A stretch of DNA of 24,034 nucleotides from the IMG/VR virus record IMGVR_UViG_3300049639_000129, positions 1-24,034 of that record; one strand, given 5' to 3'. Below, one piece after another: positions 4,338 to 22,850 of the stretch. The notes below the pieces were generated by a model, which worked only from the letters and a program-made list of their open reading frames with translations, searched no databases and was not told the DNA's origin. How positions within the stretch are numbered: position 1 is the stretch's first letter; the number at the start of each line of letters is the position of its first letter. Made by a program: the position numbers and the translations under genes. The stretch is from a virus.

Positions 4338-4727
4338 ATGAAATTTAAACAAGTTTTTACGGCTGCCTGGTTATCAAGCCTGGCAGGTTTGGCGAGCACT
4401 GCCTCGGCTGCAGTCTCACAGAATGGCACGTCGGTCTATATCCAGCCCGACGCAGTGAACGGGTATAATATGCTGACACAGTTCAGTTTATTTAGTCATT
4501 TAATGAACTTCTTAGACCTGCTTAACTATCTGGTTTATATCGGGGCTATTGCCGTCGCACTTTATTGTACCCTGCTCGTTATCCTCGGCATCGTTTCCGG
4601 GAAAAGAGACCCGAAGGCAATAAGGGACGAGCTGTCAGCTCAGGCAGGACTCGTTAAGGTCGTTAAAATTATAGTATATATGAAAGTTGCCTTGATGATT
4701 ATCGACTTTGTCTTCTATATAACATGA
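4338..4727 (+). CDS. VirB2/TrbC-like pilin candidate
   Basis: 129 aa; signal-like N-terminus then two hydrophobic helices separated by a short charged loop; first gene of the operon ending in VirB4. Confidence 0.6.
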   Translation: MKFKQVFTAAWLSSLAGLASTASAAVSQNGTSVYIQPDAVNGYNMLTQFSLFSHLMNFLDLLNYLVYIGAIAVALYCTLLVILGIVSGKRDPKAIRDELSAQAGLVKVVKIIVYMKVALMIIDFVFYIT

Positions 4728-4743
4728 AAGGAGAGCGGAAACG

Positions 4744-5697
4744 ATGCGACTGCTTCCCATCTTCGGTATTATTTTTTTATTTTCTTTTTCAGTCGTCCCG
4801 GTCATGGCTGCAGACGACGATAATACTGCAGCTCTCAAAGGAATAATAACCGGGGCCTTCGATGATTGGGTTACAAAACAAGCGGACGGGCTGGTCAAGG
4901 ACTCAAAGCTCGTAAGTTCAAACAATACCGGCGATGAAGCGAGAGTCGGCGTTTTCGATTTCGTTGTTTCTCCAATAACAATATTAGAGGATGAAACCTT
5001 CCAGAAAACCCAGAAAGAGACAATACAAATTTTTATTGTTTTGGCGAAAATCCTGGTTATTATTGTCGCTCTGCTTGCGTTAGTGCAGATTTTAGACCCG
5101 GATGCAGCCGGGGGAATAACTGAATTTTTCCACGGCAGAGCGACATATTACGAGCCGAAGGACGTGTTTAAAACGGGAATAAACCTCGCCTTATGGTTCC
5201 TTTGTGGTCCAGGGATCCTAATAGCCATGTTTTGGCTCTGCAACAACTGGGTTGGTCGGATGGATACATCGGTCCTCGATCAGGTGGTCGTCTCTTCAGA
5301 TAACCTCCCTAATTATGTAATTTTTGGGTTATCAGCTAAGGGCCTTAAAATTTACATGTCGATAAGGACGGCTATACTGCTTTTTGCGTCAAGATATTGG
5401 TATTATCTAGGTATAATGCTCGCCTGGAAAAAGACACGATGGGTAGGAATTCTTATTCTCGAATATATCGCGGTTCAGGTTTTCGTCCAGCCTGTTTTAG
5501 TTAGTCTGTTAACTGAAACGGTCGGCTACGTTTTAGACGGAGGCTTCGGGTTTTTCCTCGTTGATATGGTAGTATACGGAGGTCTAGCAATCTTAATGTC
5601 TTTAATTTGTTTCATAGCACTCACTTGCCCGATATGGATAAAATTGTTTAGTCCTAACACATTAAGGTCAGTTGTAGGGATCGCAAAAATCGCATAA
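4744..5697 (+). CDS. VirB6/TrbL-like polytopic membrane protein
   Basis: Signal peptide plus multiple hydrophobic segments; position between the pilin-like gene and VirB4. Confidence 0.6.
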   Translation: MRLLPIFGIIFLFSFSVVPVMAADDDNTAALKGIITGAFDDWVTKQADGLVKDSKLVSSNNTGDEARVGVFDFVVSPITILEDETFQKTQKETIQIFIVLAKILVIIVALLALVQILDPDAAGGITEFFHGRATYYEPKDVFKTGINLALWFLCGPGILIAMFWLCNNWVGRMDTSVLDQVVVSSDNLPNYVIFGLSAKGLKIYMSIRTAILLFASRYWYYLGIMLAWKKTRWVGILILEYIAVQVFVQPVLVSLLTETVGYVLDGGFGFFLVDMVVYGGLAILMSLICFIALTCPIWIKLFSPNTLRSVVGIAKIA

Positions 5698-5710
5698 GGA
5701 GGCTTATTAA

Positions 5711-6601
5711 ATGACAAACACACCCCCCGCGACGTTGAAGAAGGCTTATACGGGGCTCTCAGGGACCAGGGAAAAATCTAAAAAGTTCTTTATTTCTGCT
5801 GGGACTGCTTTTTTAGACCTGGAGCTCGCGAGCCGTGCCAGAGAGATATATCGAGTTTACGGGTATGATAATTATTTACTTCATTTTTATATAGGTCTCG
5901 GATTGGTGGTTACTGCTACCGTCTGGATCTGCTTAAAAGACGACGCTATCTTTTATAAAGTCGGTAATTTCTTAGACTTTTTGTATAGATGGATAATGAG
6001 AAAAGATTTCGTTTATAAACATGATGATAAAAAAACAAGCGACAAAGACATCGACGAGCACGTAAAAGTTAAGAAAATGTCTAAGTTCGGGATAATTTGG
6101 TTTAAGATCCTGACAATATACAAAAAATACAAGTGTAACACCGGGGTTATTTTCGTAGTCAATCCCCAGGACGTCCAGGACTTAGACGACTTTAACGAAA
6201 CGACTGCTTTACTACTTTACAGCCTACAGCCTGGGATCTTACAAAAATACCACACACTCCAAAGCCAGGACATGAGCGATATAGCAGAGCAGTATGAGGA
6301 ACGTCTTAAACTGCCCCCAGAAGAGCTTGGACCTGCTGAGAGAGTCGGGCTTTTTTACACCAAACAATTTTTACAAAGTCTTTCAGGGAGAGTTAACTGG
6401 GCTTATTTCATTTTCCTCGGTACTGGCTATTATACAGATGAAGAAAAAGCTAACCTGGAAGTATCTAGGATTATTAAAGCCTATCAGCTCTTTCTCGAAA
6501 ATTCCGGTATTGAGTCAAGGCTCATAACCTCGCCTTACGAGTACGAATTGATAACCAGGCAAATGCGGAGCATGAAAAATATAGGGGTGGTTACTGTATG
6601 A
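5711..6601 (+). CDS. VirB3/PrgI-like membrane protein with soluble C-terminal domain
   Basis: N-terminal hydrophobic segment(s); translationally coupled to VirB4 by an ATGA overlap at 6598-6601. Confidence 0.5.
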   Translation: MTNTPPATLKKAYTGLSGTREKSKKFFISAGTAFLDLELASRAREIYRVYGYDNYLLHFYIGLGLVVTATVWICLKDDAIFYKVGNFLDFLYRWIMRKDFVYKHDDKKTSDKDIDEHVKVKKMSKFGIIWFKILTIYKKYKCNTGVIFVVNPQDVQDLDDFNETTALLLYSLQPGILQKYHTLQSQDMSDIAEQYEERLKLPPEELGPAERVGLFYTKQFLQSLSGRVNWAYFIFLGTGYYTDEEKANLEVSRIIKAYQLFLENSGIESRLITSPYEYELITRQMRSMKNIGVVTV

Positions 6602-9309
6602 GTATCCCAATAATGTATAAGATCCTTCCAAAGCCCATAAAGAGGAGCTGGGCAGAATTCAAATGTTTTGTAAACGTTAAAAACTGGTTTAAACAGTTTG
6701 AGGAGATCGACAGGCGGCTCGTCCTGTCCCTTTCTCCTACTGTTTTTAAGCCAAAATGGGGAGGGCGGTATCTATACGCTGACGGCTGCTATATGCAGAT
6801 TATAAGCGTAGGAGATCCAAGTCCAGTTAATCCTAATAGGCAGGGAATACCCCCTAGAAAGGATCTTAGGCTTATAGATGACCTGCTAGACATCCCAACT
6901 GGGGAAAATGCCTGCATAGGAATTACGCAGACTGCTATACCCCTGCCTCCGAGAGACGAGATCGATGCCTTAGAGAACGCCAGGCGCGAAAATATCCTGG
7001 CGGCTGCAATGCAGGAAGCAGAAAACGAGGGCGTCTTTAAAAATATTCACGATAAGATTATCGACTATATAGCTGAGGGTATAAACGAGTATAACCGGGC
7101 AGTATTCGAGGGCCGTATGAGAATGTTTGAATTCTCGCTCCTGGTTGCGGTTAAGGGGAAGACTACAAAAGACGTAGACGACCTTATGAGCCTTATTATC
7201 GCTCTCCTGGACGGTAAGAGGGTAATACATGAAATCATAGAGTATGGACAGACTGACGCATATTATATGATGATGCCGACGCCGTTTATTAAGGAACGGC
7301 TTCTCTCGACCACAACCGGCGAGATGGTCGCCAGGACCAGCCCATTACGGAATAAAAATCCGAGGCTAGCGAAGTCGGGCCACTGGCTAGGGCTTAACGA
7401 GGATACAAATAACCCAATTTTCCTAAATTTCAAAGACGGAAGCCTGGTTTCTGGTCATGCTATAGTAATAGGAAAAAGTGGATCTGGAAAGTCGACTGAG
7501 CTTCTTAAGGACAATAAAAGAGTTCTTGAGATGGGAGACGAGGCTTTCCACATTGTCCCGAAGGCTGACGAGGATACTAACCATATCAACGTATGTAAAG
7601 AACTTGGCGGGCAGCTTATTAAGATCGGGCATATGCAGGCGGGGGCACAGGATGCAGACACTAACCCTAACATGTTCCAGGTCTTCTTTGATCCGGAAAG
7701 AATGGATAACTCATTAGGATCTTACCAGCTTGCGTTTTCTAAACATATGTCGCTTTTGCCGGATGTTATCGGGCTCCTAATTGGTGACAGTTTTTCAGAC
7801 CCTCAGAAAAATTGGGTATATAGCTCGCTGGTAGAGTTATACCACAGGCGAGGAGTGACAGACAACAACGGAAACGTCATTAACCTGGATAAATGGGAAG
7901 ATGGCAACTTCTGGCCTAATTTCGATGATTGGCGGGCTCTCATATATGAGTGGATGCAAGACGATGAGCACAAAGCCCCTAATGTGAATTCTGTCCTTGC
8001 TGCCATCTATAACAATACAACCATGATAACCCGGAAAGGGCCTTACGGTTTCCTTGTAAATAACAACATCCTAAAGCTTAGGAATAGATTTACAATGGTT
8101 GACCTTTCCGAGCTCATAGACTCGCCTAATATTCAGGACGCGTTGATCCTGCTTATTACAGGGATCATTAACACAAAGATCCAATGTGTACCGAAAGGGC
8201 AGGTTAAGAAACATATTTTTATTACCTTGGACGAAGGCGCAAACCTGGTTAAGATCCCACGGATGCGAATCGTAATTGAACGGATGTTCAGAGAGCTTCG
8301 CAGTTTTGGAGGTCATCTTAAAATAGTATTCCAGGACCTAGCAGGCGTGCCCCCGGAGACGATACTTATGATGAAAACAAATTCCGACTACGTGCTCCTG
8401 CTTTCTAACATGTCAGCCTATAACATAAAGCCGTTAGTTAAAGAATTTAACCTCACTAGAAACGACATAAGGAGACTTAAAGCGAAAGGAAAAGGAAAGG
8501 GCCTCCTGATCGTCGGAGACACGCGTATAAACTATTTCAATTCACTTACTGAGGATGATGAGAGGGTAATCTTTGGGAAATCGTTGAAAGTTGATTCTGA
8601 GAATACAGAGCAGTCGGCTGGATTCTGCCTGGATAAAAGGGTACAGTGGGTAAAGGATAAACATAAAGTCTTTTTAAAAGACTGGCTTACCGGCATACCT
8701 TTAAACCAGGTTATACGGGTACCCGGCTACGAAATGGAGCAATTCGACCATCCATTCAAGGCAGGAAAAAAGACGGTTTATGTTGAAGTCGGGCTCGAAA
8801 AAGAGGACGGGCACATCAAAAACCAGACGAAGGAACATTACCTCTTTGCCTGCGCTCTCGCAGGCGAAGGCTCATTAATGGGAGCAGTCGCAACTACTGA
8901 CGACTATGGGACACATCAAGAAGTAGACGTTAAGCTAGTCTTCAACCAGGGGACTGATAACGAAACTGTAATCGGGATTGAAGTTGAAATCGAAAGATCG
9001 CATACGGCAAAGGAACTTCAGGAAAAACGAGACAGGTTATTAATGAGAAAACGCGATGGGAAGCCTGAATTTGACCATATAATTTTCACGGGAACACATG
9101 ATTATTATAAAACGACACTCCGCGACGCCGTTGGGCCCGATTATTCAGCCCCCAGAGGCAAAAGGCTAAGGGAAAAAATACTCGCTTGCGTAAAAACAGG
9201 AAAGAGGGCAGCCGATGACGAAAAATTAAAGGGCGGAGAAAACCAGGATTCAGGAAATCCGCCTGATTTAAACGTGTATTCCTGCGAATCGACCGCTCAG
9301 GAGGCTTAA
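6598..9309 (+). CDS. virB4: VirB4-like conjugation ATPase with extra C-terminal domain
   Basis: Walker A GKSGSGKS (7471-7494), Walker B ITLDEG (8221-8238), R-S-F-G-G arginine-finger region, GxG motif (KGKGKGLL), long VirB4-type N-terminal domain; 903 aa. Confidence 0.85.
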   Translation: MSIPIMYKILPKPIKRSWAEFKCFVNVKNWFKQFEEIDRRLVLSLSPTVFKPKWGGRYLYADGCYMQIISVGDPSPVNPNRQGIPPRKDLRLIDDLLDIPTGENACIGITQTAIPLPPRDEIDALENARRENILAAAMQEAENEGVFKNIHDKIIDYIAEGINEYNRAVFEGRMRMFEFSLLVAVKGKTTKDVDDLMSLIIALLDGKRVIHEIIEYGQTDAYYMMMPTPFIKERLLSTTTGEMVARTSPLRNKNPRLAKSGHWLGLNEDTNNPIFLNFKDGSLVSGHAIVIGKSGSGKSTELLKDNKRVLEMGDEAFHIVPKADEDTNHINVCKELGGQLIKIGHMQAGAQDADTNPNMFQVFFDPERMDNSLGSYQLAFSKHMSLLPDVIGLLIGDSFSDPQKNWVYSSLVELYHRRGVTDNNGNVINLDKWEDGNFWPNFDDWRALIYEWMQDDEHKAPNVNSVLAAIYNNTTMITRKGPYGFLVNNNILKLRNRFTMVDLSELIDSPNIQDALILLITGIINTKIQCVPKGQVKKHIFITLDEGANLVKIPRMRIVIERMFRELRSFGGHLKIVFQDLAGVPPETILMMKTNSDYVLLLSNMSAYNIKPLVKEFNLTRNDIRRLKAKGKGKGLLIVGDTRINYFNSLTEDDERVIFGKSLKVDSENTEQSAGFCLDKRVQWVKDKHKVFLKDWLTGIPLNQVIRVPGYEMEQFDHPFKAGKKTVYVEVGLEKEDGHIKNQTKEHYLFACALAGEGSLMGAVATTDDYGTHQEVDVKLVFNQGTDNETVIGIEVEIERSHTAKELQEKRDRLLMRKRDGKPEFDHIIFTGTHDYYKTTLRDAVGPDYSAPRGKRLREKILACVKTGKRAADDEKLKGGENQDSGNPPDLNVYSCESTAQEA

Positions 9310-9322
9310 CTCCTAGCGGCAC

Positions 9323-9433
9323 TGTCCATAATAGGACATACGACTCGCTATAGCTCCGGACTATGATAAGTCCGGCATACGCTCGTCTATAGTCCATTAA
9401 TGTCCAGTCCCTCCGGGCCTGAGCCCGGAGGGA
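9323..9433. other. GC-rich cluster of three hairpins (candidate oriT, terminator or structured RNA)
   Basis: TGTCC/GGACA (9323-9338), CCGGACT/AGTCCGG (9356-9375), TCCCTCCGGGC/GCCCGGAGGGA (9408-9433). Confidence 0.55.
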
Positions 9434-9521
9434 ACGGAGAAAAACCGGTGCACGAAACAAGTAAAAAACTTATGAACAAGTAACACAAAAGTAACAGGTT
9501 TGTAATATTGGAGCTTCCGAG

Positions 9522-9920
9522 ATGAATAACTTTTTAAATGTCTCCTGCGATTGTATTTTAATGACTAGAGAAGAGTCAAATGAAATGAAAAAGGAGAAAG
9601 TCGGTAAGGGGATGTATCACGCTATTGACCTGGATGTGTGGGATGATCCGTTCCCGGTTCTCCAGATAGGCAATAAAGGGCGTGTACATCTGCCTCTTGG
9701 ATATCTCGACTCAGATATCTGGGTTTTTATTTCTGAATCTGCAGACATAAGGAAAAAATGTAATCTTATATTATTACCCAAAACAGGACCGACAAAGTGG
9801 GAAGAGGTCTTTCAATCGAGAGGGAAAAACGCAGGCGATCTTTTAAACATCTTCGGAAACGGCGATATTTGCGTAAAATATAAAAAAGGTATGAATGTTA
9901 AAGTATTCGTGAGGAAATAA
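9522..9920 (+). CDS. Hypothetical protein, possibly tandem AbrB/DUF2080-like swapped-hairpin DNA-binding domains
   Basis: Two similar segments (LQIGNKGRVHLPLGYLDSDIWVFI; LNIFGNGDICVKYKKGMNVKVFV). The true start may be a downstream ATG (MTR or MKK). Confidence 0.55.
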   Translation: MNNFLNVSCDCILMTREESNEMKKEKVGKGMYHAIDLDVWDDPFPVLQIGNKGRVHLPLGYLDSDIWVFISESADIRKKCNLILLPKTGPTKWEEVFQSRGKNAGDLLNIFGNGDICVKYKKGMNVKVFVRK

Positions 9921-9924
9921 TCTT

Positions 9925-10344
9925 ATGTTACCTGAATTAAACCCTATTACTGTTATACTGGTTATACTCGTCGCTGTCGGTGGATTAGTCGGCGGTTACG
10001 CAGCGCATGACTTCCAGCTCCAGGAGATCAAGGAGAACAGCTTTGAGGATCAGATCAGAGCAAACGTTACCCAGGTAGATAACGAGATCCAGGCGTTAAA
10101 GCTGGCTTATAATAATTCAAGTGTCGGATATTTCCGGGCAGACTGCCAAAACTCGCAGCAGTATATAACGGAGAAATGGCAGACAGCGAGCCGTGATTCT
10201 GGAATGAGTGCAGAGGACCGGAAGCTTAACGCGGAATACAGGGATTTTTTAGTCGAAGCCAGCAGCATTATAGACGTTTACCTGGCGAGAAGTAACCCGG
10301 ACTTCACAGAGTATGAAACCCACAGAGACAACTTATTAAAGTGA
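9925..10344 (+). CDS. Single-pass membrane-anchored hypothetical protein (139 aa)
   Basis: N-terminal transmembrane segment (ITVILVILVAVGGLVGGYAA) followed by a helical soluble domain. Confidence 0.75.
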   Translation: MLPELNPITVILVILVAVGGLVGGYAAHDFQLQEIKENSFEDQIRANVTQVDNEIQALKLAYNNSSVGYFRADCQNSQQYITEKWQTASRDSGMSAEDRKLNAEYRDFLVEASSIIDVYLARSNPDFTEYETHRDNLLK

Positions 10345-10398
10345 ATTCAGAAAAGCAGGAAACGACGGGAGAAATATTTATTGAGTGAGGAGTGAAAT

Positions 10399-10608
10399 AT
10401 GAAATACAGAAAAACCGCATTAATCGAAGCTGAACAGTATAGAAGAGGACTTGAAGATGGAATAGATGAGAAAGGACCTTATCTTAATACTCTCGAAGGA
10501 AAACTGTATATCCCTCCAAATGGCTGGATAGCTACCGGGGCGATGGGCGAGAGATGGGCAATTCAGGATGATATATTTAGATTGACTTATGAGGCTGTCG
10601 AGGAATGA
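10399..10608 (+). CDS. Small phage-type protein (TLEG...GE...IF..TYE family), function unknown
   Basis: Motif pattern MKYRK..IEAEQ / NTLEG / GW..TGAMGERW / DIFRLTYE is typical of a widespread phage family; GAGGAGTG SD. Confidence 0.7.
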   Translation: MKYRKTALIEAEQYRRGLEDGIDEKGPYLNTLEGKLYIPPNGWIATGAMGERWAIQDDIFRLTYEAVEE

Positions 10609-10662
10609 ATTCTTTGGTCCTCTCGTTTATTATTTCCTTTATATCATTAACGAAACAGGAGG

Positions 10663-10695
10663 CTTAAAGCTATGGTATTAGACCATAGCTTTAAG
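10663..10695. promoter_or_regulatory. Perfect 14-bp-arm inverted repeat
   Basis: CTTAAAGCTATGGT-attag-ACCATAGCTTTAAG. Confidence 0.7.
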
Positions 10696-10705
10696 GTGGT
10701 CCAGG

Positions 10706-11137
10706 ATGCCAGCCTCCCCGAGGGTGGAAATGTCGAATTATGATACTCATAAATTCCTCGGGCTCCTCCCCCTGCCTCTCGTCGTGGTCTTTCTATGGAT
10801 GGCATACGACGGAGGCTTCGCCGAGATCGAGCCTTTAATTTTATTCCTGGTCTGGTGGCTGCTGCACACTCTCGTTATAACTCCAGATATAGACACGCTT
10901 TCGATACCCTCTAAGCGACTGGGACCACTAGGCTGGGTAATAAGGAAACTGTCAAAGCATAGGAAAACCTGGCACTCTCCGCTATTTTGGGCCGTATATT
11001 TTGGCCTGAGTTACAATTATCTCGGCTGGTGGACCCTGGGTGGTGTCTTCCCTATATACTGTCATATTTACGTGGATATAATAACAAGCTGGCTAAACAG
11101 ACGCAAAATAATAAAACTATTAAAGAAGTTATTTTAA
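10706..11137 (+). CDS. DUF2227/YdjM-like metal-binding membrane protein (putative hydrolase)
   Basis: Motifs TH, TPDIDT.S and HRK.WHS with transmembrane segments; the start may be 10730. Confidence 0.7.
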   Translation: MPASPRVEMSNYDTHKFLGLLPLPLVVVFLWMAYDGGFAEIEPLILFLVWWLLHTLVITPDIDTLSIPSKRLGPLGWVIRKLSKHRKTWHSPLFWAVYFGLSYNYLGWWTLGGVFPIYCHIYVDIITSWLNRRKIIKLLKKLF

Positions 11138-11168
11138 AACGGTCTATTGCAACTGAAAAAACAAACGC

Positions 11169-11245
11169 CTACTACTACTACTACTACTTACTAAGATAGA
11201 ATATAGTATAGTATAGATAGTGTAGGTACATACACGTACATACAC
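11169..11245. repeat. Simple-repeat cluster upstream of the RHH gene
   Basis: (CTA)6 at 11169-11186, (TATAG)3 at 11202-11216, (GTACATACAC)2 at 11226-11245. Confidence 0.85.
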
Positions 11246-11268
11246 TCCCCAATCAATACGGTGATATC

Positions 11269-11682
11269 ATGCCTCTCGTAGCAACCACAGTGAAATTAGA
11301 ATCTGACAAATTAGAACTTATTAAAATGAAGCAGGTGAACGTTTCCCAACTCTGCCGAGATGCTGTAGACTCTTATCTTAAATTAAATAGCACAGATAAA
11401 GCCGTTATAAAGAGCCAGATCGCAGACTTACAACAGCAAAGGAATTCTATTGACCTACAAATAAAACTCCTCCTGAAGCAGTTAGAAACATGTGAGAACG
11501 AAGACGTACTCAGCACTCACAGGAACGCAATGTTTGAAAAGTGGAAAACTAACATGGCGTTTATGGTCAATAAAAAGACTATTGATTGGGGGACTGTTTC
11601 GGATGTCTTCAAGTTCTCAACAAGGGCAGAATGTGAGGCGTATATTATAAATAGGTTAAAAGAAGAAGGATTAATTACATAA
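11269..11682 (+). CDS. Ribbon-helix-helix transcriptional regulator with coiled coil
   Basis: N-terminal strand-helix-helix pattern (ATTVKLESDKLELIK..VNVSQLCRDAVDSYL), heptad segment, helical C-terminal domain; GGTGA SD. Confidence 0.75.
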   Translation: MPLVATTVKLESDKLELIKMKQVNVSQLCRDAVDSYLKLNSTDKAVIKSQIADLQQQRNSIDLQIKLLLKQLETCENEDVLSTHRNAMFEKWKTNMAFMVNKKTIDWGTVSDVFKFSTRAECEAYIINRLKEEGLIT

Positions 11683-11702
11683 CACTTCCAGAGGGGTATC
11701 GA

Positions 11703-11837
11703 TTGACAGGCGACAAATCCGAGGTGGAGAGCCAGCTTGCAGAAATTGAAAAGGAAATAGAGTGTTTAGATGCTCAAAGGCGTCTACTCCTTTCCATTCT
11801 TGAAACTATTAATAACGAAGTCCCGACAGGGGCTTAA
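11703..11837 (+). CDS. 44-aa coiled-coil mini-protein paralogous to the RHH protein's coiled coil
   Basis: TTG start after GAGGGG; MTGDKSEVESQLAEIEKEIECLDAQRRLLLSILETINNEVPTGA; 14/35 ungapped identities to the upstream gene. Below the ORF-track length cutoff. Confidence 0.7.
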   Translation: MTGDKSEVESQLAEIEKEIECLDAQRRLLLSILETINNEVPTGA

Positions 11838-11932
11838 TCACTCTTTTATCAAAATCGTTATCAGTTGATGGTGTGTACACGTACACACATTTAATTTAGT
11901 CTATTTTTTTGTTTCCTTATTTTTCCTTTTTA

Positions 11933-12010
11933 GTTTGGTTGTGCAAATATAAGCATAACCAAACGTAAGTTATATATAGTAATAGGTTGTATAGTATATT
12001 GTACAACCTA
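11933..12010 (+). promoter_or_regulatory. Array element copy 1: hairpin + BRE/TATA + 28-bp palindrome
   Basis: GTTTGGTTGTGC/GCATAACCAAAC stem, then CGTAAG-TTATATATA, then TAGGTTGTATAGTATATTGTACAACCTA (11983-12010). Confidence 0.9.
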
Positions 12011-12049
12011 ATAGTAAAACGGATAATAAAAGAACTAATAAAAGGAGAC

Positions 12050-12103
12050 AACCAAACATAAGTTTTATATACTATTAGGTTGTATAGAATATTGTACAAC
12101 CTA
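12050..12103 (+). promoter_or_regulatory. Array element copy 2 (no upstream hairpin arm)
   Basis: AACCAAACATAAG-TTTTATATA; palindrome at 12076-12103 with one spacer substitution. Confidence 0.9.
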
Positions 12104-12141
12104 AGAGAAAACAATAACAAAGTAATACGGAGGAAAAGAAA

Positions 12142-12537
12142 ATGATACTCAATTTGACCCAACACGCAGCGACCCCAGAACAGAAGGCTCAACTCGTAGT
12201 AGAGCCTAGAATGTGCAAAGCAAAAATACAGAAACTTCTTACTTTCGATGAGATCCCTTCAAAAGAAGAAATCGAAGCAAGAGCCTCAGAGCTGGCGGAA
12301 ATCGCAGTGTCTGAGGCAAATCATTACGCGGGTGAGACTGACAATAGAATCTGGATCACCCGCGTAATGATAGGTGGTGCTCCGTTTTTCATGGGAGCAC
12401 TCGAGAAAGCACTCCGGGAATGCGGGTTTACCCCCGTATACGCGTTTTCGAAAAGAGAGAGCGAGGAAATCCCACAGCCGGATGGGTCAGTCAGGAAGAT
12501 CGCAGTATTCCGGCACATTGGATTCGTGGAGGTCTGA
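12142..12537 (+). CDS. Csx20/Csx15-like small Rossmann/CARF-like protein, candidate ring nuclease (copy A1)
   Basis: N-terminal LNLTQH..TPEQ and C-terminal MIGG..G.TPVYA.SKRES.E..QPDG..RK..VFRH.GF resemble the recalled Csx20/Csx15 consensus; GGAGG SD. The ORF is certain, the function is inferred. Confidence 0.6.
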   Translation: MILNLTQHAATPEQKAQLVVEPRMCKAKIQKLLTFDEIPSKEEIEARASELAEIAVSEANHYAGETDNRIWITRVMIGGAPFFMGALEKALRECGFTPVYAFSKRESEEIPQPDGSVRKIAVFRHIGFVEV

Positions 12538-12540
12538 AAA

Positions 12541-14634: not shown

Positions 14635-14672
14635 GCAGTTGTTAATTTCTCTTTCCTTTTTTTTCCTTTTTA

Positions 14673-14750
14673 GTTTGGTTATACCAATTATAATATAACC
14701 AAACGTAAGTTTTATATAGTAATAGGTTGTATAGTATATTGTACAACCTA
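14673..14750 (+). promoter_or_regulatory. Array element copy 5
   Basis: Perfect 11-bp stem GTTTGGTTATA/TATAACCAAAC, TATA, palindrome at 14723-14750. Confidence 0.9.
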
Positions 14751-14794
14751 AGAGAAAACGATAATAAAAAGAACTAATAAAAGGAGAAACCAAA

Positions 14795-15271
14795 ATGATG
14801 CAAAGAACTACACAGAAGGAAATAGGAACAGAAGTGACCTCAAGACTCAACGCACTGGAGAACAGTTTTCCTCCAGAGATATTGGATAACACATTCAAAA
14901 AAATAGTAAATAAAGCCTTGTACGCAAGGCTTCGTGAAATGGAAATCGAGGGTGCATCTGATAGACAGATGTACTCTGAAGTATTCAAATATGTTGACCC
15001 TTCCGAAATCCCAGCGTTTCCGGGGGGGCTGAATTATGTCAAACGTGGGACATACCGCTTCAGGTTCGTCGCGAATCGGAAGTACTACAGGAGCCCGTGC
15101 TTCATAGTGGAGCCAGTTCCAGATGTAGATCAAGCGCTCCGAGAGATTAATATTAGATACAATTATGATCTCACATCCGAGGAGTGTAAAAAAGCCAAAC
15201 TTCAAGAAATTGAAGGGCTTCCATACGACAAAAAATACTTGCGCCCACCTCGGACAAAGTGGACGCTGTGA
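14795..15271 (+). CDS. Hypothetical protein (copy B2, 158 aa)
   Basis: Paralog of B1 with 13 extra N-terminal residues; AAAGGAG SD. Confidence 0.85.
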   Translation: MMQRTTQKEIGTEVTSRLNALENSFPPEILDNTFKKIVNKALYARLREMEIEGASDRQMYSEVFKYVDPSEIPAFPGGLNYVKRGTYRFRFVANRKYYRSPCFIVEPVPDVDQALREINIRYNYDLTSEECKKAKLQEIEGLPYDKKYLRPPRTKWTL

Positions 15272-15327
15272 ATCGCGCACACGATGAAACTCTTAAACAA
15301 ACCGAATGAAAGCTCAGAGGAAATAAA

Positions 15328-15789
15328 ATGACTGTTTATAAACTTGACAAGGGTGCTCACTCCGTATACACCCTGCATTACCATTTAATTCTCGTCGTGA
15401 AAGACAGGAGAAAAGCCCTGTATAACGAGGTAATCAGGGAAAGGTTAAAAGAAATTATATATAAAATGGCTGAAAAATGGCAAAGAGAAAAAAATACAGA
15501 AATGGCTATTGAAATCGTAGCTCAAGAGCCGGGGGAAGATCACCATTATATTCTCTTCAAGGCAACCCCTCGCACCTCTCTTACAAAAGTGATCAACAGC
15601 ATCAAAGGAGCCTCCGCGAGAGTCCTTAGAAATGAATTTCCTGAAACTAAGAAATTCTTATGGGGGGATGCTTTCTGGGCACCTTCATACTTCTTGGCTA
15701 CGACAGGACAAGTTTCTCTTGATGTCCTAAAAGCCTATGTCGAAAGTCAGGAAAGCAAAAGAGAAAAGATCTTTGGAAAATTAAAGTAA
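15328..15789 (+). mobile_element. tnpA: IS200/IS605-family Y1 transposase with degenerate HUH motif; no tnpB
   Basis: KGAHSVY.LHYHL, SIKG.SAR, FW.PSYF..T.G and catalytic Y..SQ present; HUH reads H-H-Y (15541-15549) and KYRR reads KDRR. Confidence 0.9.
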
Positions 15790-16260: not shown

Positions 16261-16507
16261 AAACATCAGAAAATATTATGATGTAATCAACGAATCGGAC
16301 CGCATAGTCTCAGCCTTTGAATATGGGAAATTTCACGTCTGTATGAAAAACGAAGCCGGAGAACTCGGACTTTTCCAAAAGAATCTCATCAAAGAAAGCG
16401 GGGACATGTATCTTCCATCTTTTGAAAACGCGCCTCTGTTTATCAGGAAGCCTGGGAAGATTGTGGTCATTGCGCCTTGTGAAGTTAAGGGGGTTGGTAA
16501 TGTCTGA
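16202..16507 (+). CDS. Hypothetical protein (101 aa)
   Basis: GAGGAGTGA SD; overlaps the start of the next gene. Confidence 0.75.
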   Translation: MIRNAENTLMSVEHENELPENIRKYYDVINESDRIVSAFEYGKFHVCMKNEAGELGLFQKNLIKESGDMYLPSFENAPLFIRKPGKIVVIAPCEVKGVGNV

Positions 16508-16883
16508 AATCGAAATCCTCAACATGCGTAATACTCATCTAGTCGCGGACCTCTGCTTCAGGATCGACAGAAAAACGAAATGGGGTAATCCCTATAAAAT
16601 GCGCTCAGAACGTGAACGGATGGATGTTATTAAGAAATACACTTACTATCTTTTAGATAGTAAGTTACTCGATGATATTCACGAACTTGAAGGTAAATGG
16701 CTGGCATGTTGGTGCCATCCTAAACCTTGTCATGGGGATGTCCTAAAGTACCTCGCTGAACATCCTGAACTAGTCGGGATGTATCGAGGCGGGGCGATTT
16801 CGAGGGATGACGTAATACAAAGGATCTGGCAGGCTAATGGATGGAAGGGGGAGCAGGTAGGACAGCAGATGAAGTTATTTTAA
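16500..16883 (+). CDS. DUF4326-family protein
   Basis: Motifs IDRKTKWGNPY and LEGKWLACWCHPKPCHGDVL. The start is reassigned from 16422 to ATG 16500 (MSEIEIL), which follows a G-rich SD. Confidence 0.85.
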   Translation: MSEIEILNMRNTHLVADLCFRIDRKTKWGNPYKMRSERERMDVIKKYTYYLLDSKLLDDIHELEGKWLACWCHPKPCHGDVLKYLAEHPELVGMYRGGAISRDDVIQRIWQANGWKGEQVGQQMKLF

Positions 16884-17126: not shown

Positions 17127-18140
17127 ATGCCACAAAATATCGGCGATCCTCCTCAACATTTCATAACTGAACCATTACGTTCTTTTGCTCCTAAAAAACT
17201 CGAAAATGGCGATCTCCGCATGGCAATAGCGAAAGCAGGTCAGAAAGCATATTCTATGCGGGGAGAAGAGGCCACACTAACGAAAGAATTTTTATCAAAA
17301 GACTTTTCCACATGGGATGAAGGTCTTGTAAGTATCAACCATGAAAACAATCACGAGTGGGTCAAAGCTACTCTTTACGATCCAGAATATGACCCAGAAA
17401 ACGAATTAGTCATTTGCTCTTTTTCAGGCTTACCTGAATGGGTTGTGAGCCTCATCTATTCCGAAGATTACAGGGGTCTTTCTCAAGAGTGTATCCCTGT
17501 GAAATTCGCTAAAAATTCAATGAATGTTGTAAGAGGGTTTGGGACTGGTGTAACTATTGTTACAGCACCTTACGAGCCTGCGGCTAATCAGGGCATGGGT
17601 GTAGGAATCAGGCCCGAACTTTCCGCTATTCTTGCTTCAAAATATCCAACTCAAATAGAGGATACTATGTCAGAAACCAAAGGAGGCGGTACCCCCGCCA
17701 TATCAGTGGAGACATACGAGAGTGTTGTCTCCGAAAAAGCACAGCTCGTAAGCCGTGTTTCGGCTTTAGAATCTGAAAAAACAAAACTGGAGACTGAACT
17801 TGCTTCCACAAGAAAAGAGTTTGAATCCTATAAAGCTGGAGAAGCTGAGAGGACTAAACTTGCCTACTCCGAAGGAAAAGCGGACGGACGGGCTGAAATC
17901 ATTGCTGAAACCGAAAGAAGTACCGCTATAGAAGAGTTTAAACAGACTCATAGTAAGGAGTTTGTTGAATCTTTCCTCTCTACTAATCCAAGCATTGAAC
18001 AGATAAAGATTCTGACTGCAGGTAAAAAAGTGGATCTTTCAAAGGGTCCAGGCACATCTCAGAGTTATCAGCCTGAAGATGACGGTGAGTCTTACGAATC
18101 CATAAACCGGCGGTTCAATGAATTGCTTGGGAGGACGTAA
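17127..18140 (+). CDS. Prohead protease / scaffolding protein
   Basis: N-terminal protease-like motifs (W..GLVSINH; GLSQE; GVTIV..P..PAA), C-terminal acidic coiled coil; first gene of the capsid operon; TTTATATA box at about 17099. Confidence 0.65.
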   Translation: MPQNIGDPPQHFITEPLRSFAPKKLENGDLRMAIAKAGQKAYSMRGEEATLTKEFLSKDFSTWDEGLVSINHENNHEWVKATLYDPEYDPENELVICSFSGLPEWVVSLIYSEDYRGLSQECIPVKFAKNSMNVVRGFGTGVTIVTAPYEPAANQGMGVGIRPELSAILASKYPTQIEDTMSETKGGGTPAISVETYESVVSEKAQLVSRVSALESEKTKLETELASTRKEFESYKAGEAERTKLAYSEGKADGRAEIIAETERSTAIEEFKQTHSKEFVESFLSTNPSIEQIKILTAGKKVDLSKGPGTSQSYQPEDDGESYESINRRFNELLGRT

Positions 18141-18142
18141 GC

Positions 18143-18745
18143 ATGGCAACTAACTCAATATCGGGTGACTATGGCTTTGTAACTCAAATCCCATGTATCC
18201 TTAAGGAAGGGGATATTACTGTCAATAGCTCGGCATACGGTCCTTTCGGCAAAATGACAGTTTGCACATTCGCCTCTGAAATTTCTAAGGGCGACGTGGT
18301 AGCACTCTCAACAGACTCTGCAAACACAGCAGACGCAACAGAAAACAATATTGTAGTTACCGCCCTTGCAAACAATGTAGATCTTGCAATAGGCAGAATC
18401 ATAGATGAGCCCAAGTGGGTAAGACAGCCAACCGCAAACCAGTCCACATGGGCTGATATGCTTGCAGCCGGGTATTACAGAATTGCAACCGTTGAGCTGT
18501 TTATCCCGATGAGTATTTTCAAAGCTACCCTTGTATGTGCAAATGCTTCAGCCATTACCCCCGGAACCACTGGAAACCTTGACATCGATGCAAGCGCAAG
18601 CCTGGAACTTCACGGTCTTTCAGTTGTAGATGTTGATACAGGTGGATCATCTGACATGATACCTCTAACATACGCAGCTAAGTCGGATAGCGCAACTGTT
18701 TCTGTTCTCGTTGGATTCAAAGGATTTGGAACGGTGACAACTTAA
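18143..18745 (+). CDS. Capsid decoration/cement protein candidate
   Basis: Located between protease/scaffold and major capsid gene (lambda gpD position); small, beta-rich, Ala/Thr/Gly-rich. Confidence 0.55.
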   Translation: MATNSISGDYGFVTQIPCILKEGDITVNSSAYGPFGKMTVCTFASEISKGDVVALSTDSANTADATENNIVVTALANNVDLAIGRIIDEPKWVRQPTANQSTWADMLAAGYYRIATVELFIPMSIFKATLVCANASAITPGTTGNLDIDASASLELHGLSVVDVDTGGSSDMIPLTYAAKSDSATVSVLVGFKGFGTVTT

Positions 18746-18759
18746 GGGAGGGATGAAAA

Positions 18760-19722
18760 ATGTCTGTAACAGCACCAAATGAAGAATTTTTGACTAAGCG
18801 GTTCCTTATCCCGAAAATGTACGAGATAATGAACCCTCTGCTTGCCTGGACTGACATATTCCCACAGGTTCGGGCTACTGCTCCTGTAGTCGCATATAAG
18901 CAGGAAATCACAAGCGATTCTGGAGATACTAAGAAGGAAAGACCTAAACTGATGACTACATCAGGCCAGTGGACTTATGTGGAGATCTCGCAGTTCACGA
19001 TGAAAGCTGCAAACCTGAACAAGCGCGGTTTTGCGATCAAAATCGACCAGGACGCTCTAGATTATGTAGAGGGCGTTGACGAAATCCAGAGAGCCCTACG
19101 GAAGACTGGCTATTGGATTGCCGAAGATTACAATACAAGGATATCCACTGAAATTGCCAACAGTGGAACGGATCTCGCAGGGGAATGGAATCCAGCTGCC
19201 GAATGGTCCGATGCAAACGCCGCTCCGATTTCAGACCTGGAAGACCTCGAAGATGCTTTCATTCGGGAAGGATACCCGTACAGGCTCACGGATGTATTCA
19301 TCCATAAAGACAATTTCAAAGAGCTAAAAAAATACCTTACATCCCTTGATATCGACCAGTATAAACACGAGAAGCTCTACGGTACTCCGAACAACGGAAA
19401 CCGCGACACTCTGGAAATTCCAGTCGTGGGAGCTACAGTTCACCGGCTTCTCTCAGGAATTTCGGAAGGGTCTATTATTGCAATTGACCGCAATAACCCA
19501 GGCATTACAATTTTCTACAACCAGAGCCCCAGATATTCTGCGATGAGTGGAACTTATGAAACCATGCAGAACGGTCAGAAGATCAGCAAAAGCCTGTCTT
19601 ATGGGTTCAACATGAACAAATATTTCGACAACGAGACCCACCAGACTATCATTCAGATGTGGTATGACAACGTACCTGTCACTATTGAACCGTATGCAAT
19701 AGCAATAGATACAGGCATTTAA
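18760..19722 (+). CDS. Major capsid protein, HK97-fold candidate
   Basis: 320 aa; KRGFAIKIDQDAL followed by a long spine helix (EIQRALRKTGYWIAEDYNTRI), W.D..A.PI.DL motif, terminal V..P.AI; GGGAGG SD. Confidence 0.75.
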   Translation: MSVTAPNEEFLTKRFLIPKMYEIMNPLLAWTDIFPQVRATAPVVAYKQEITSDSGDTKKERPKLMTTSGQWTYVEISQFTMKAANLNKRGFAIKIDQDALDYVEGVDEIQRALRKTGYWIAEDYNTRISTEIANSGTDLAGEWNPAAEWSDANAAPISDLEDLEDAFIREGYPYRLTDVFIHKDNFKELKKYLTSLDIDQYKHEKLYGTPNNGNRDTLEIPVVGATVHRLLSGISEGSIIAIDRNNPGITIFYNQSPRYSAMSGTYETMQNGQKISKSLSYGFNMNKYFDNETHQTIIQMWYDNVPVTIEPYAIAIDTGI

Positions 19723-19777
19723 GCCTGTTACATTTTTTGGGACTCCCTAAGTACCTAACATCAAGGAGATTTTTATA

Positions 19778-20281
19778 ATGACTTACACTCAAACACCCCT
19801 GGCAACTCTGCGAAGTAAAGCAGGTTCATTACTTCAAAAATTATATTCTGAATTCGGTCTTGTCAAAACCGAACTTGACGCTCTAGCAGCAGTAGACGCA
19901 GCAGGCTTAAAAATAGCAAAGGGTTCCCTCACACCAGGTGACGCTGGCGATTTCGCTTTCACCTGGCAAAATCCAGAAGCCTCTAAAATAATTGTTACCC
20001 GCATTCTCATCAATATTACTACAGCCGGAGGAACTGACTCTAGCGTTCTCGATGTTGGAGTAGTCGCAGATGCAGCAAGCACAGCAAATACTCTTATTGA
20101 TGGGTTGGACCTCAACGCCACTGGAATTTTTGATAATATAACAGACAAAGGAGATAGCGGGAAATCCCGTCAGGTAGTCGATGAAAAAGGCGGGACAAAT
20201 GATTACATCACGGGTAAGATTCTTGTACAGGACGCAGCTGCTCTGGCGGGTAAGTATTACATTCTTTATACTGTTATATAA
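19778..20281 (+). CDS. Virion structural protein candidate (167 aa, beta-sandwich)
   Basis: Follows the MCP; alternating beta-strand pattern; LDVG..LIDG motif. Confidence 0.6.
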   Translation: MTYTQTPLATLRSKAGSLLQKLYSEFGLVKTELDALAAVDAAGLKIAKGSLTPGDAGDFAFTWQNPEASKIIVTRILINITTAGGTDSSVLDVGVVADAASTANTLIDGLDLNATGIFDNITDKGDSGKSRQVVDEKGGTNDYITGKILVQDAAALAGKYYILYTVI

Positions 20282-20292
20282 GGAGGGTTCTG

Positions 20293-20655
20293 ATGTACTC
20301 TCCTTTAGTTTTTGATCCTATCAACCTTTTCACAGATCAATCTGTAGCAGCCTCGACGACTTCGGATCCTTCAGACAGACTCGAAACTACTCGACTTACT
20401 AAAGTTCAGATCAGAGTAAAAAATACCGGAGCTTCAACGAATGTTACTGTAAATATTTATTCAGTTGACGCAGCTACAGGCGGGATAAGCGCACTAGTCC
20501 AGCCGTTTACTTTAGGGGCTGGCAATGTAACACCTGCTACAGCTTGGAAATATATTGAGAAAGACGCGATTCCCAGGTATATCTATGCTCAAATTGTGAA
20601 TTCTGACGCTTCAAATGATGCGATTATCACGGTGTCAGTAGACAGGTGGCGTTAA
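20293..20655 (+). CDS. Virion structural protein candidate (120 aa, beta-rich)
   Basis: GGAGGG SD; operonic with neighbours; TAATG coupling to the next gene. Confidence 0.6.
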   Translation: MYSPLVFDPINLFTDQSVAASTTSDPSDRLETTRLTKVQIRVKNTGASTNVTVNIYSVDAATGGISALVQPFTLGAGNVTPATAWKYIEKDAIPRYIYAQIVNSDASNDAIITVSVDRWR

Positions 20656-22850
20656 TGAAACTTCCAACTCCATCTGCCCCATATTCTCCTGTCTATGTGC
20701 ATGGGGAGTCTATCACAATCGAGACAGAGGGCAAAGTCTTAGTTCTCCCCTCTGGAAATCCTGACATCCTCACTTCACACAATGAATATACTCTCAACAG
20801 CAACCGTTTATCTATAGCTGAAAATCCGTTTGGCGGGCTTAAAGGGTCTGGCTCTCCTGATTATGCGCCTGGAACTGTCCATATTATCGAGGGTGACGGG
20901 GTATATTTACAGGATGTTTCAGGGACAAATTCGAGTAAAACGTTATCGGCGGGGAAGTTAAAAGAGTTAAATCTGTTGAGTGTGGATACCGTTGGTCATT
21001 CGATTACTGAAGAGTTTATTATTGCGAATACTGCGACGGGTAATAATCCGAGTGTTATTGATGCTTGTGATGCTACTACAGGATGGTCAGGTGTATCACT
21101 TGGAACCGGAACATTAACCTCTGAAAATGGCAAATTGAAAATCGTAGGTACAACAGACGCAAACGGAAGAATACGTACGTATAAACGCTTTACAAACGTT
21201 TTCGCTGGAAAAGACTTTTGCACTTTTACGATTAACGCGAGTCAAAATTGCAACCTATATTTTATAATTGCAAATTCTCCATATACAGGCGAAAAATTTT
21301 GGAGTGGGCCGAGATTCCCAATTAGTGCTAACACTGATACAAAATTCTGCATACCCGTACACGCACCTGCTGGATCGCTTGGGTCATTACCAAGTTCTGG
21401 CAGTTTAACATCGGATGGTGTGGACGCGGTAGTTGATATATATATAGGCATATCTGGTGCGACACCGAGTTCTGAGGTCACTGTATACATTGATAACATC
21501 ACAGCAGATGTAGCTCGCCCCACATATCTCGAAATTCAAGTCCCTGATTATCTCGCTGATACAAGTGCACAAATATACACACACAACGGCACAGCCTATC
21601 AACTCTGTTCTACACATTCTTTAGACGGTGCTTATTCTCAGGTATCCCAAACAAGCGCAAACTGCACATTTTTGGACGGTACAAAACTTGATGATGTCTA
21701 CGGAACCGGGGCAGGTAGAGCAGTTTTCCCTAAAGGATCAGCAGCAGCTACGGTAAACGGTTCTACAGGGAGTATAACGTATTCGGAAAATCGAGGGACT
21801 GATAAGAGAATCGGATTGAAAGTAGACCTGCCTCCGAGTGATAATGGAAGGACGAATTTTAATAAAGTTCGGGCGAAATTAGTTATAAATTATACTGATA
21901 CGGTCGGAAATATTGTACCTGATTTGTCAGGGAATGGGAACCATGGAACTATTGTTGGCGGTGTGACGAAGTTAAATGAAGGTGGATTAAAGTTTGATGG
22001 GAGTACAGGGTATGTTAATTGTGGAAACCCTACGGCATTAAATACTAACAATTTTACGATAATAACCACCGTAATACCAACAACTGGTGGATACATCTAT
22101 GATAAAAATGTAAGTACATATAATAATGGGGAGTATTTAATTCAGTATGACCTCAACTATCAGCGAGTATTGAGTTCTATTGATTATTATGCATCTAATA
22201 TCACATCACCGTCAAATTCAGTACCGTCAGGTGTATCGGCATGTATAGTACAGCGGTATGATTCCAGTGTACATTCTCTATTTATTAACAATGTTAAATA
22301 TACGGTAGACTATTCAGCTACACGTACTCACAATAGTTCTAATTTTGTATTAGGTACTCGAAATATAAATACGGGTAATTTCGGAGGAACTATACAAAAA
22401 ATACGTGTGTATAATCGCGCACTATCAGACACGGAAGTAACTGCTGCATATAATAATCAATATGTAGATCCAACAGGGTTGGTCATTAGTTACGATCCAA
22501 CCCCTATAAACATGGGTGCAGTAACCTATGAACTTTCCAATGACAACAGTGCCTCTACCGGACTGCAAAACCTCTCAAAGCCCTGGATAGCTCTCTACGA
22601 TCCCACTTCTAACCTCATAGACTTTTATCTCTTCACTCACCGCCCTAAAAATCTCGAATTCCGCAGGGATGAATCAGGCAACATCTATGAGCTTGTTTTG
22701 TATCCTGGAAACGGGTTGATCTATCACGGACAGATAACGTATCCTGATTTGACACTTGATTCTGATTCTAATTTGATTCCTAATTTTTTAGAGGAGTCTA
22801 TTGAAGGTTCACTTACTAAATTTTTAAAACCATATGGAATGGTGATATAA
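20655..22850 (+). CDS. Large spike/fibre-like protein with LamG (ConA-like) domain
   Basis: LamG signature DLSGNGNHGTI...LKFDG..GYV...FGG.I...RVYNRALSDTEV. The start is reassigned from GTG 20646 to ATG 20655 (overlapping the upstream TAA). Confidence 0.75.
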   Translation: MKLPTPSAPYSPVYVHGESITIETEGKVLVLPSGNPDILTSHNEYTLNSNRLSIAENPFGGLKGSGSPDYAPGTVHIIEGDGVYLQDVSGTNSSKTLSAGKLKELNLLSVDTVGHSITEEFIIANTATGNNPSVIDACDATTGWSGVSLGTGTLTSENGKLKIVGTTDANGRIRTYKRFTNVFAGKDFCTFTINASQNCNLYFIIANSPYTGEKFWSGPRFPISANTDTKFCIPVHAPAGSLGSLPSSGSLTSDGVDAVVDIYIGISGATPSSEVTVYIDNITADVARPTYLEIQVPDYLADTSAQIYTHNGTAYQLCSTHSLDGAYSQVSQTSANCTFLDGTKLDDVYGTGAGRAVFPKGSAAATVNGSTGSITYSENRGTDKRIGLKVDLPPSDNGRTNFNKVRAKLVINYTDTVGNIVPDLSGNGNHGTIVGGVTKLNEGGLKFDGSTGYVNCGNPTALNTNNFTIITTVIPTTGGYIYDKNVSTYNNGEYLIQYDLNYQRVLSSIDYYASNITSPSNSVPSGVSACIVQRYDSSVHSLFINNVKYTVDYSATRTHNSSNFVLGTRNINTGNFGGTIQKIRVYNRALSDTEVTAAYNNQYVDPTGLVISYDPTPINMGAVTYELSNDNSASTGLQNLSKPWIALYDPTSNLIDFYLFTHRPKNLEFRRDESGNIYELVLYPGNGLIYHGQITYPDLTLDSDSNLIPNFLEESIEGSLTKFLKPYGMVI

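Follow-up and report, generated by a model that had tools for sequence, protein, structure and literature searches.

Viruses and conjugative elements are treated as two separate routes by which DNA moves itself between cells, and the locus described here raises the question of whether one small genome can hold the genes of both. The locus is the entire IMG/VR virus record IMGVR_UViG_3300049639_000129 (24,034 bp, classed as linear, CheckV completeness 34%), called the window below. The original prediction had placed in it one operon resembling a type IV secretion system (T4SS) and another for an HK97-like capsid, and had read them either as one element with two modes of transmission or as a conjugative element that had domesticated a capsid. 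Both gene sets are present on the + strand, the cassette operon at 4338–9309 and the operon for the scaffold and the major capsid protein (MCP) at 17127–22850. As had also been claimed, no intervening open reading frame (ORF) belongs to a housekeeping family, and neither a relaxase nor a VirD4 family occurs on any ORF of the window. There are no tRNA genes, the G+C content is 37–46% and almost all long ORFs lie on the + strand. The window is very probably about one-third of the genome belonging to a head-tailed virus of the HK97 type (Caudoviricetes), with Methanosarcina as the most likely host, and the six-gene cassette is evolutionarily kept between the portal and the scaffold/MCP blocks. 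The features of the two modules are as follows.

2241–2292, + strand: promoter/operator copy 1, upstream of the beta-helix gene; TATA box within a palindrome (repeats D7, I10)
2309–4195, + strand: right-handed beta-helix protein, secreted and pectate-lyase-like, with a membrane anchor at its C-terminus (PF12708, Beta_helix)
4263–4314, + strand: promoter/operator copy 2, upstream of the pilin-to-VirB4 operon (repeats D7, I10)
4338–4727, + strand: VirB2/TedC-like pilin candidate, 129 aa (by topology and position)
4744–5697, + strand: TrbL/VirB6-like polytopic membrane protein, a lead from topology and language-model clusters
5711–6601, + strand: membrane-anchored 296-aa protein, homologue of the VirB4 N-terminus (hhalign)
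6598–9309, + strand: VirB4-family ATPase (HMMs, PDB profile) with a likely nuclease-like C-terminal domain (8560–9306)
9522–10344, + strand: two small genes after VirB4, of 132 aa and of 139 aa with an N-terminal transmembrane (TM) segment
17127–18140, + strand: scaffold-like protein, N-terminal domain and coiled coil (by a Phage_scaffold hint and synteny)
18143–18745, + strand: 200-aa head-module protein in conserved position, decoration candidate
18760–19722, + strand: major capsid protein, PF25209/HK97-like by sequence
19778–20655, + strand: pair of small genes of the head module (167 aa; 120 aa), kept in G003, L005 and L006
20646–22850, + strand: 734-aa concanavalin-like lectin-domain protein (Laminin_G_3 1.1e-9), candidate head fibre or receptor-binding protein

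Relatives were retrieved with both halves of the window (G001–G015 denote related viral records, L numbers related loci or contigs, and P numbers individual protein relatives). The VirB4 query found G001 (54,099 bp) and G002 (38,759 bp) at 93–94% identity, and the MCP query found G003 (73,512 bp) at 80%; G003 also has a VirB4, of 24% identity. Searches with more diverse alignments added G006, G007, G008, G009, G010 and G012. G001 is circularised at 54.1 kb by an exact 119-nt terminal repeat, G007 at 53.0 kb by an 82-nt terminal repeat, and G003 at 73.5 kb by a 98-nt end overlap, with its VirB6-like ORF running uninterrupted over the junction. VirB4, TerL and MCP are found together in G001, G003, G007, G006, G008, G009 and G012, while G002 and G010 each have VirB4 with just one of the other two. 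The tblastn map gives a common order: (MCM), TerL, portal, beta-helix, pilin, VirB6-like, 296-aa, VirB4, scaffold, MCP and tape measure. It is complete in G001, G003 and G007, and holds in G002, G008 and G009 as far as the genes were detected. In G012, portal, scaffold and MCP are contiguous and VirB4 lies elsewhere. All records with a window-type MCP of at least 61% identity carry VirB4 if they are long enough, as does G012 (MCP 45%); VirB4 was not found in the more distant MCP relatives G011, G013, G014 and G015.

By their gene content the relatives are tailed viruses. TerL was detected in G001, G002, G003, G006, G007, G008 and G012, and G001 encodes an MCM, TerL (phrog_38 6e-103), a tape measure protein (PF10145 1.4e-51), a Linocin-like HK97-type MCP and a portal protein, the last a weak call (PF04860 4.4e-5, 23.3 bits against a cut-off of 39.1). 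Since the relatives carry TerL, portal, tape measure, tail and MCM genes, they represent a full Caudoviricetes-type virus, and the idea of a conjugative element with a domesticated capsid is not borne out. The window is without terminase, portal and tail genes because it is only a fragment; in L010, head–tail connector genes follow immediately past the position of its right end.

The linkage of the two halves is also seen in independent assemblies. The IS200 and DUF4326 genes are joined to the MCP module in L005 and L006, and the cassette is joined to DUF4326 and accessory genes in G001 and G002, which share about 90% nucleotide identity with window positions 1821–10346 and have a different MCP. 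With circularised relatives that hold both modules in a conserved order, the claim of one element is borne out. Separate adjacent insertions, or a chimera, had been named in advance as what relatives might show; the outcome is the opposite, both modules lying in one genome. Gene content, linkage and synteny show the element to be a tailed virus with an inherited yet exchangeable conjugation-type cassette.

The capsid half is recognized by its MCP, which matches phrog_1650 ('major head protein', 2e-8) and PF25209 (2.5e-5; 25.2 bits, just under the cut-off of 27). PF25209 is precomputed on almost all of the 74 MCP relatives, and tblastn against BK063678 reaches the gene annotated 'major head protein, HK97-like fold' (3e-10, 82% of the query, 24.5% identity). 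Because the alignments are shallow, neither profile–profile alignment between the two MCP types nor a profile search of the PDB was informative. The scaffold-like gene is syntenic with the MCP gene in G003, G008, G009 and L005–L007, and the 200-aa gene is kept between them among the relatives. Three further labels of the original prediction could not be verified: for the 'protease' at 17127–18140 there is a coiled coil and a hint of Phage_scaffold (E 0.11) and nothing else, the 'decoration' protein at 18143–18745 has no family match, and the 'spike' at 20646–22850 is a Laminin_G_3 lectin-domain protein encoded between the MCP and the head–tail connector genes.

The T4SS-like half is composed of five genes in the same direction, for the beta-helix protein, the pilin candidate, the VirB6-like protein, the 296-aa protein and VirB4. 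The last is the best defined by profile hidden Markov models (HMMs): it matches NCBIfam VirB4_plasma (E 1.6e-28), CD1110-family VirB4 (2.4e-25) and TIGR00929 (2e-15), all under the curated cut-offs, and is therefore a distant family member. Its Walker A motif is GKSGSGKST, and the family profile reaches the VirB4 structure 4AG5 in the PDB at 3.3e-5. An exhaustive profile search gave 1871 relatives at E <=1e-3, 88 of them at E <=1e-30. The nearer ones (37–100% identity) come from contigs that repeat the five-gene layout, several of these contigs being 53–74 kb long. Two more distant full-length relatives are found in non-viral contexts and have the same C-terminal domain: P0254 lies near type III CRISPR genes, and P0280 near a VirD4/TraG coupling protein, toxin–antitoxin genes, ArdC-N and a methylase, that is, in a conjugative element. 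Their contigs are L079 (GCA_040961635.1) and L080 (GCA_041643235.1), and elements of this type may constitute an undescribed family of conjugative elements, possibly archaeal. The nearest plasmid proteins in PLSDB are CD1110-type VirB4 proteins of Bacillota, of about 23% identity. The cassette VirB4 is thus kin to VirB4 proteins of conjugative elements.

The 296-aa family is collinear with residues 42–258 of the 1066-aa VirB4 P0280 (hhalign probability 96%, E 3.6e-9); it therefore represents a split-off, membrane-anchored VirB4 N-terminus, with a single TM segment at residues 55–75. There is no family match, no hit in the PDB profile search and no language-model cluster match for this protein. 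It had been predicted to be VirB3-like; it stands as a membrane partner of VirB4, but as a split N-terminus and not as a classical VirB3.

The C-terminal domain of VirB4, about 240 aa (residues ~655–903), is conserved throughout the family, including the non-viral relatives, and has the invariant or near-invariant residues H747, E757, D777, E795, E797 and K810. Its predicted structure (pLDDT, the model's own confidence score, 84.6) has an alpha-beta-beta-beta-alpha core, with the acidic residues placed as in PD-(D/E)XK enzymes. The best structural matches are mostly PD-(D/E)XK nucleases (Cdn1/Can2, HindIII, MspJI, FokI, Hjc and Bax1); some receiver and flavodoxin-like domains are also among the matches by Z score. 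The model points to a likely PD-(D/E)XK nuclease-like fold. In the VirB4 genes of G001 (9529–12228) and G002 (6277–8976), a TGA stands in frame some 20 codons short of the end point of the window ORF, and the similarity extends past it, as a truncation or a read-through.

The beta-helix gene always heads the cassette, and has the same position in G001, G002, G003, G007, G008, G009 and L037–L040. Its product (PF12708 4.4e-14, Beta_helix 1.8e-8) has a signal peptide and a C-terminal TM segment, carries a Disaggr_assoc domain in some of the relatives, and is a candidate enzyme for opening the cell wall or matrix. One 52-nt element, a TATA box inside a palindrome, precedes both this gene and the pilin gene, which points to a single regulator for the beta-helix gene and the operon.

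In its topology the pilin candidate follows VirB2 and TedC: a signal peptide is combined with two hydrophobic helices and with a loop rich in K and R. Its position is conserved across the relatives, from which a family alignment was made. The VirB6-like protein has a signal peptide and at least five TM segments, and all 10 of its top language-model clusters are TrbL/VirB6 (TrbL_4/TrbL_2/CD1112; score 0.88, 177 shared features), which we treat as a lead towards a TrbL/VirB6 identity and not as an HMM match. No match emerged by hhalign between the viral pilin and VirB6 families and the small membrane proteins encoded at the conjugative-element locus L080. The two small genes behind VirB4 have orthologues in the same place in G001 and G002, and genes of similar size follow VirB4 in L026, L027 and L038. 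The ratio of non-synonymous to synonymous substitution rates (dN/dS) between the window and G001 is 0.06–0.27 across all seven cassette genes (0.18 for the pilin candidate, 0.12 for the VirB6-like gene and 0.06 for the 296-aa gene): the cassette is conserved and under purifying selection.

The host is probably Methanosarcina, as judged from sequence kinship. Among named proteins, those closest to the G001 MCM all come from this genus, a copy in a small integrase–MCM element (55%) followed by cellular copies (46–47%), and other Methanosarcinaceae come next at 42–45%. Among 14 control genomes, the Disaggr_assoc domain has matches in M. acetivorans only. The Methanosarcina MCM relative P0142 was considered as a provirus of this group and rejected; it sits in a small integrase–MCM element. 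The tail region of G001 (30895–38320; L018 10895–18320) has genes for a DUF2341 protein of 1236 aa and for two beta-helix proteins related to disaggregatase; the products are likely virion-borne depolymerases for the Methanosarcina matrix.

Several known systems resemble parts of this arrangement. Ced, found in Sulfolobales and Aeropyrum, and Ted, found in Thermoproteales, consist of a VirB2-like pilin, a VirB6-like channel and a VirB4-like ATPase (PMC9905601). The cassette has the same three-part core without a coupling protein, a pilin candidate with a signal peptide like that of TedC, and no relaxase. Ced and Ted, however, are chromosomal DNA importers of Thermoproteota, whereas the cassette sits in a virus that probably infects a euryarchaeal methanogen, with a split VirB4, a putative nuclease-like domain and a co-regulated secreted beta-helix enzyme; its VirB4 matches CedB only marginally (E 4.8e-4; 18.9 bits, where the cut-off is 700). 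The conjugative T4SSs of monoderms and archaea (MPF_FATA, Sulfolobus plasmids, thaumarchaeal integrative conjugative elements (ICEs)) are closer by VirB4, the best models being the CD1110 and Mbov_0397 ICE ATPases. The TrbL-like partner resembles the CD1112 type, and a candidate wall-opening enzyme heads the operon, as with CwlT and PrgK. Unlike these systems, the viruses are without a coupling protein, a relaxase and an oriT-type function, the carrier is a complete tailed virus, and the cassette scores far below the family cut-offs.

Head-tailed viruses of methanogens, such as BK063678 ('Caudoviricetes sp. vir249', host Methanobacteriales), share an MCP of the PF25209 type, HK97-like by sequence, and the relatives of the window have TerL, portal, tape measure and a virus-encoded MCM like them; they differ in a TerL at most 40% identical to any listed record and in the cassette that separates portal and scaffold. 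Among the phage and archaeal-virus GenBank records in INPHARED there is no real VirB4 homologue, only two unannotated partial matches of 24%. Virus-type and plasmid- or conjugation-type genes are combined in phage-plasmids, phage–ICE tandems and conjugative plasmids that carry prophages (PMC12282955, PMC7969092, PMC13651849, PMC12934698). Phage-plasmids, however, move between cells as phages do, and the plasmid genes that they retain are for replication and partition, not for mating-pair formation, and tandems are two elements side by side, whereas here mating-pair-type genes lie inside the structural region of one small viral genome. In the literature searched there is no paper linking VirB4 with archaeal tailed viruses, with an incomplete coverage of methanogen-virus compendia, and neither Ngo et al. 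2022 nor the 2026 survey of archaeal proviruses mentions such a cassette. As far as we can tell, its occurrence in tailed viruses is unpublished.

What the cassette does is a separate question, and the answer is less secure. Contact-dependent transfer of DNA between the cells of aggregates is the single most likely function, at somewhat short of an even chance. We infer the assembly of the machine, its substrate and the direction of transfer as follows. A regulator binding the shared palindromic TATA-operator would switch on the beta-helix gene and the operon jointly, in an infected or carrier cell. The beta-helix enzyme would open the methanochondroitin or S-layer locally, in a role like that of VirB1, CwlT and PrgK in bacterial systems, and the remaining proteins would build a minimal envelope-spanning conduit or pilus, as in archaeal conjugation and Ced/Ted. 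The conduit would carry DNA, most plausibly the viral genome itself, between touching cells of Methanosarcina aggregates, and the nuclease-like domain of VirB4 might process the DNA in place of a relaxase. In its full form the proposal, which we offer tentatively and rate as less probable than DNA transfer in general, is that tailed viruses of Methanosarcina spread both as virions and through a conjugation-type conduit of their own, with the VirB4 domain replacing the relaxase.

A number of observations weigh against this overall account of the window and its cassette. The pilin candidate was assigned by topology and has no HMM match; the VirB6-like protein has no Pfam, NCBIfam or PDB-profile match, and its language-model score is below the tool's 0.9 mark. 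The structural matches of the nuclease-like fold have middling scores (Foldseek E 0.012–0.5, VIA Z 5–6.9), and the AlphaFold model of the MCP has a pLDDT of only 37 (from a 13-sequence alignment), so that its HK97-like assignment comes from sequence. The coupling protein family PF02534 is absent from G001, G003, G007, G008 and G009, where the sole weak match is inside VirB4, and the window has no relaxase. The latter absence is not decisive for archaea, because archaeal conjugative plasmids and ICEs are likewise without relaxases (PMC6563490). ParB (PF02195) and ParA (PF01656) are absent from nine related records, bar one sub-threshold ParA match in G008; replication of these viruses relies on MCM, with no plasmid-type replication or partition genes. 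Two scans of species genomes found no provirus, and the host is placed by kinship of genes. The leftmost 1.8 kb of the window is without support from an independent assembly, its unique stretch 678–1820 having no blastn match in G001, G002, L005 or L006. The identities of the two modules are also discordant: window and G003 share 80% in the MCP and 24% in VirB4, while window and G001 share 94% in VirB4 and have unrelated MCPs. The cassette is therefore swapped as a module that keeps its position, and its purpose could be unrelated to viral spread.

Other explanations account for part of these observations. The cassette might be an importer like Ced and Ted, which pulls in DNA of neighbouring cells as nucleotides, as recombination partners or to the benefit of a lysogen, and does not export the virus. 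The three-part core, the pilin signal peptide, cleavable as in TedC (PMC9905601), the lack of a coupling protein and relaxase and the weak CedB match (NF041017, E 4.8e-4) are all in its favour; we nevertheless consider it rather improbable, since Ced and Ted are chromosomal host systems, the closest of the non-viral relatives found beside transfer genes has a VirD4-type coupling protein nearby, in the setting of a conjugative element, the advantage to a virus is unclear and the CedB score falls far short of its cut-off. Ranked just after it, with a similarly low probability, is a surface machine that does not handle DNA and would act in release from the matrix and egress, in adhesion and aggregation of infected cells, in protein secretion, or in the exclusion of superinfecting viruses or competing conjugative elements. 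The product of the first, co-regulated gene is a secreted beta-helix protein that putatively degrades glycans and in some relatives has a domain related to disaggregatase, T4SS machines secrete proteins too, and no DNA-processing partner is recognized besides the putative nuclease domain. Tailed viruses of S-layer archaea are not known to have a lysis system, which also fits this role. It is countered by the VirB4 subfamily and its nuclease-like domain, which are common to elements with typical DNA-conjugation neighbours, and by the fusion of that domain to the motor, which points to a DNA substrate.

A nested mobile element is a further candidate: the cassette, with the small genes on its flanks, might be a mini-ICE or a hitchhiker carried by the virus as its vehicle. 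Portal and scaffold genes usually adjoin each other, as they do in G012, and are parted here by 15–20 kb that hold the cassette, accessory genes and an IS200 transposase gene, with a small tyrosine recombinase gene in G001, and cassette alleles are swapped among viruses with similar capsids. We regard this as distinctly unlikely: six genomes, with VirB4 proteins as far apart as 21–24% identity, have it at one place and in one orientation, the genes are under purifying selection, and no close relative with an empty site, no att-like flanking repeats and no replication or coupling gene inside the region were found. Least probable of all, and very unlikely, is an artefact, in which the assembly would be chimeric or a host chromosome would have taken up two independent elements next to each other. 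Such an origin might be suspected from the inverted repeat at the contig ends, where assemblers can misjoin, and from the unsupported left end. The repeat arms, however, differ by 8%, so there was no assembly fold-back and the arms are two diverged paralogues; independent assemblies span each internal junction, both modules recur in circularised relatives, and host genes and tRNA genes are absent. Contact-dependent DNA transfer is thus followed by Ced-like import, a release or adhesion role and a nested hitchhiker, in that order.

The remaining features of the window lie at its ends and between the two modules.

1–1187, − strand: GH16-like/PKD secreted paralogue with a signal peptide; 3' end off the contig; 1–677 is the left arm of the inverted repeat
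11912–15281, + strand: accessory gene array behind 72-nt promoter/palindrome units (direct repeats D1–D6)
15328–15789, + strand: IS200-type Y1 (HUH) transposase gene (PF01797 1.8e-34)
16422–16883, + strand: DUF4326 protein (PF14216 3.1e-21)
22852–23244, + strand: conserved 130-aa gene with homologues in G002, G003 and L005
23252–24034, + strand: GH16-like/PKD gene, no signal peptide, its 3' end beyond the contig edge; 23285–23961 is the right arm of the inverted repeat

The accessory array contains five copies of a 72-nt unit (a TATA-like box and a 28–34-nt palindrome), each ahead of a small gene, and two of its genes occur twice, one of 131 aa (12142 and 14239) and one of 144/158 aa (12541 and 14795). 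In G001 and G002, homologues of the accessory genes stand in altered order and with inversions. The IS200-type transposase gene, without a TnpB partner, lies between the accessory genes and the head module, and is 92–95% conserved upstream of the MCP module in L005 (1–594) and L006 (929–1369). The HUH transposase was considered as a stand-in relaxase and rejected as a core part because its gene was not found in G001 or G003. The DUF4326 gene ties the window to G001, G002 and L006.

The genes between the MCP and the head–tail connectors are hypervariable (19778–23244 compared with L005, L006, L007, L010 and G001–G003). Their products are lectin-domain proteins of 550–850 aa, among which the 734-aa protein of the window is highly variable, or an unrelated protein of 611–685 aa; homologues of the 120-aa gene adjoin the lectin protein gene in G001 and G002. 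This pattern suggests exchangeable glycan-binding head fibres or receptor-binding proteins.

The two window ends form an inverted repeat of 677 nt (1–677 and 23285–23961; 92% complementary). The inverted GH16-PKD repeat of the original prediction is therefore real as a repeat, but its GH16 assignment is weak. The right copy matches PKD_4 (9e-6) and has PF00722 (GH16) at E 0.02 with an ExDxE motif; the left copy has no Pfam match and differs by a signal peptide and an additional N-terminal region. In L010 a full-length GH16-PKD gene (824 aa) is followed by the head–tail connector homologues. G001 has a gene for a tyrosine recombinase of about 195 aa (2985–3569, − strand; locus L085) between its GH16-PKD gene and the cassette. 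Tyrosine recombinase genes are present in G001, G008 and G009 and not in G003 or G007. A recombinase-driven inversion or switching of the surface GH16-PKD gene, of which the window has two inverted copies, is conceivable.

A mating-pair-type machine is a conserved and selected part of the complete genomes of tailed viruses that probably infect a key methanogen. If the cassette serves release or adhesion, this would still be a new viral use of T4SS parts. If it moves DNA, it would offer a tractable entry to archaeal conjugation outside Thermoproteota, where no relaxase is known, and the nuclease-like domain of VirB4 would be a concrete candidate for the missing DNA-processing step. It would also add a contact-dependent route to the life cycle of these viruses, which would be sensible in Methanosarcina aggregates, where the thick matrix limits the diffusion of virions; with such dual spread, the virus would also be self-transmissible by contact.

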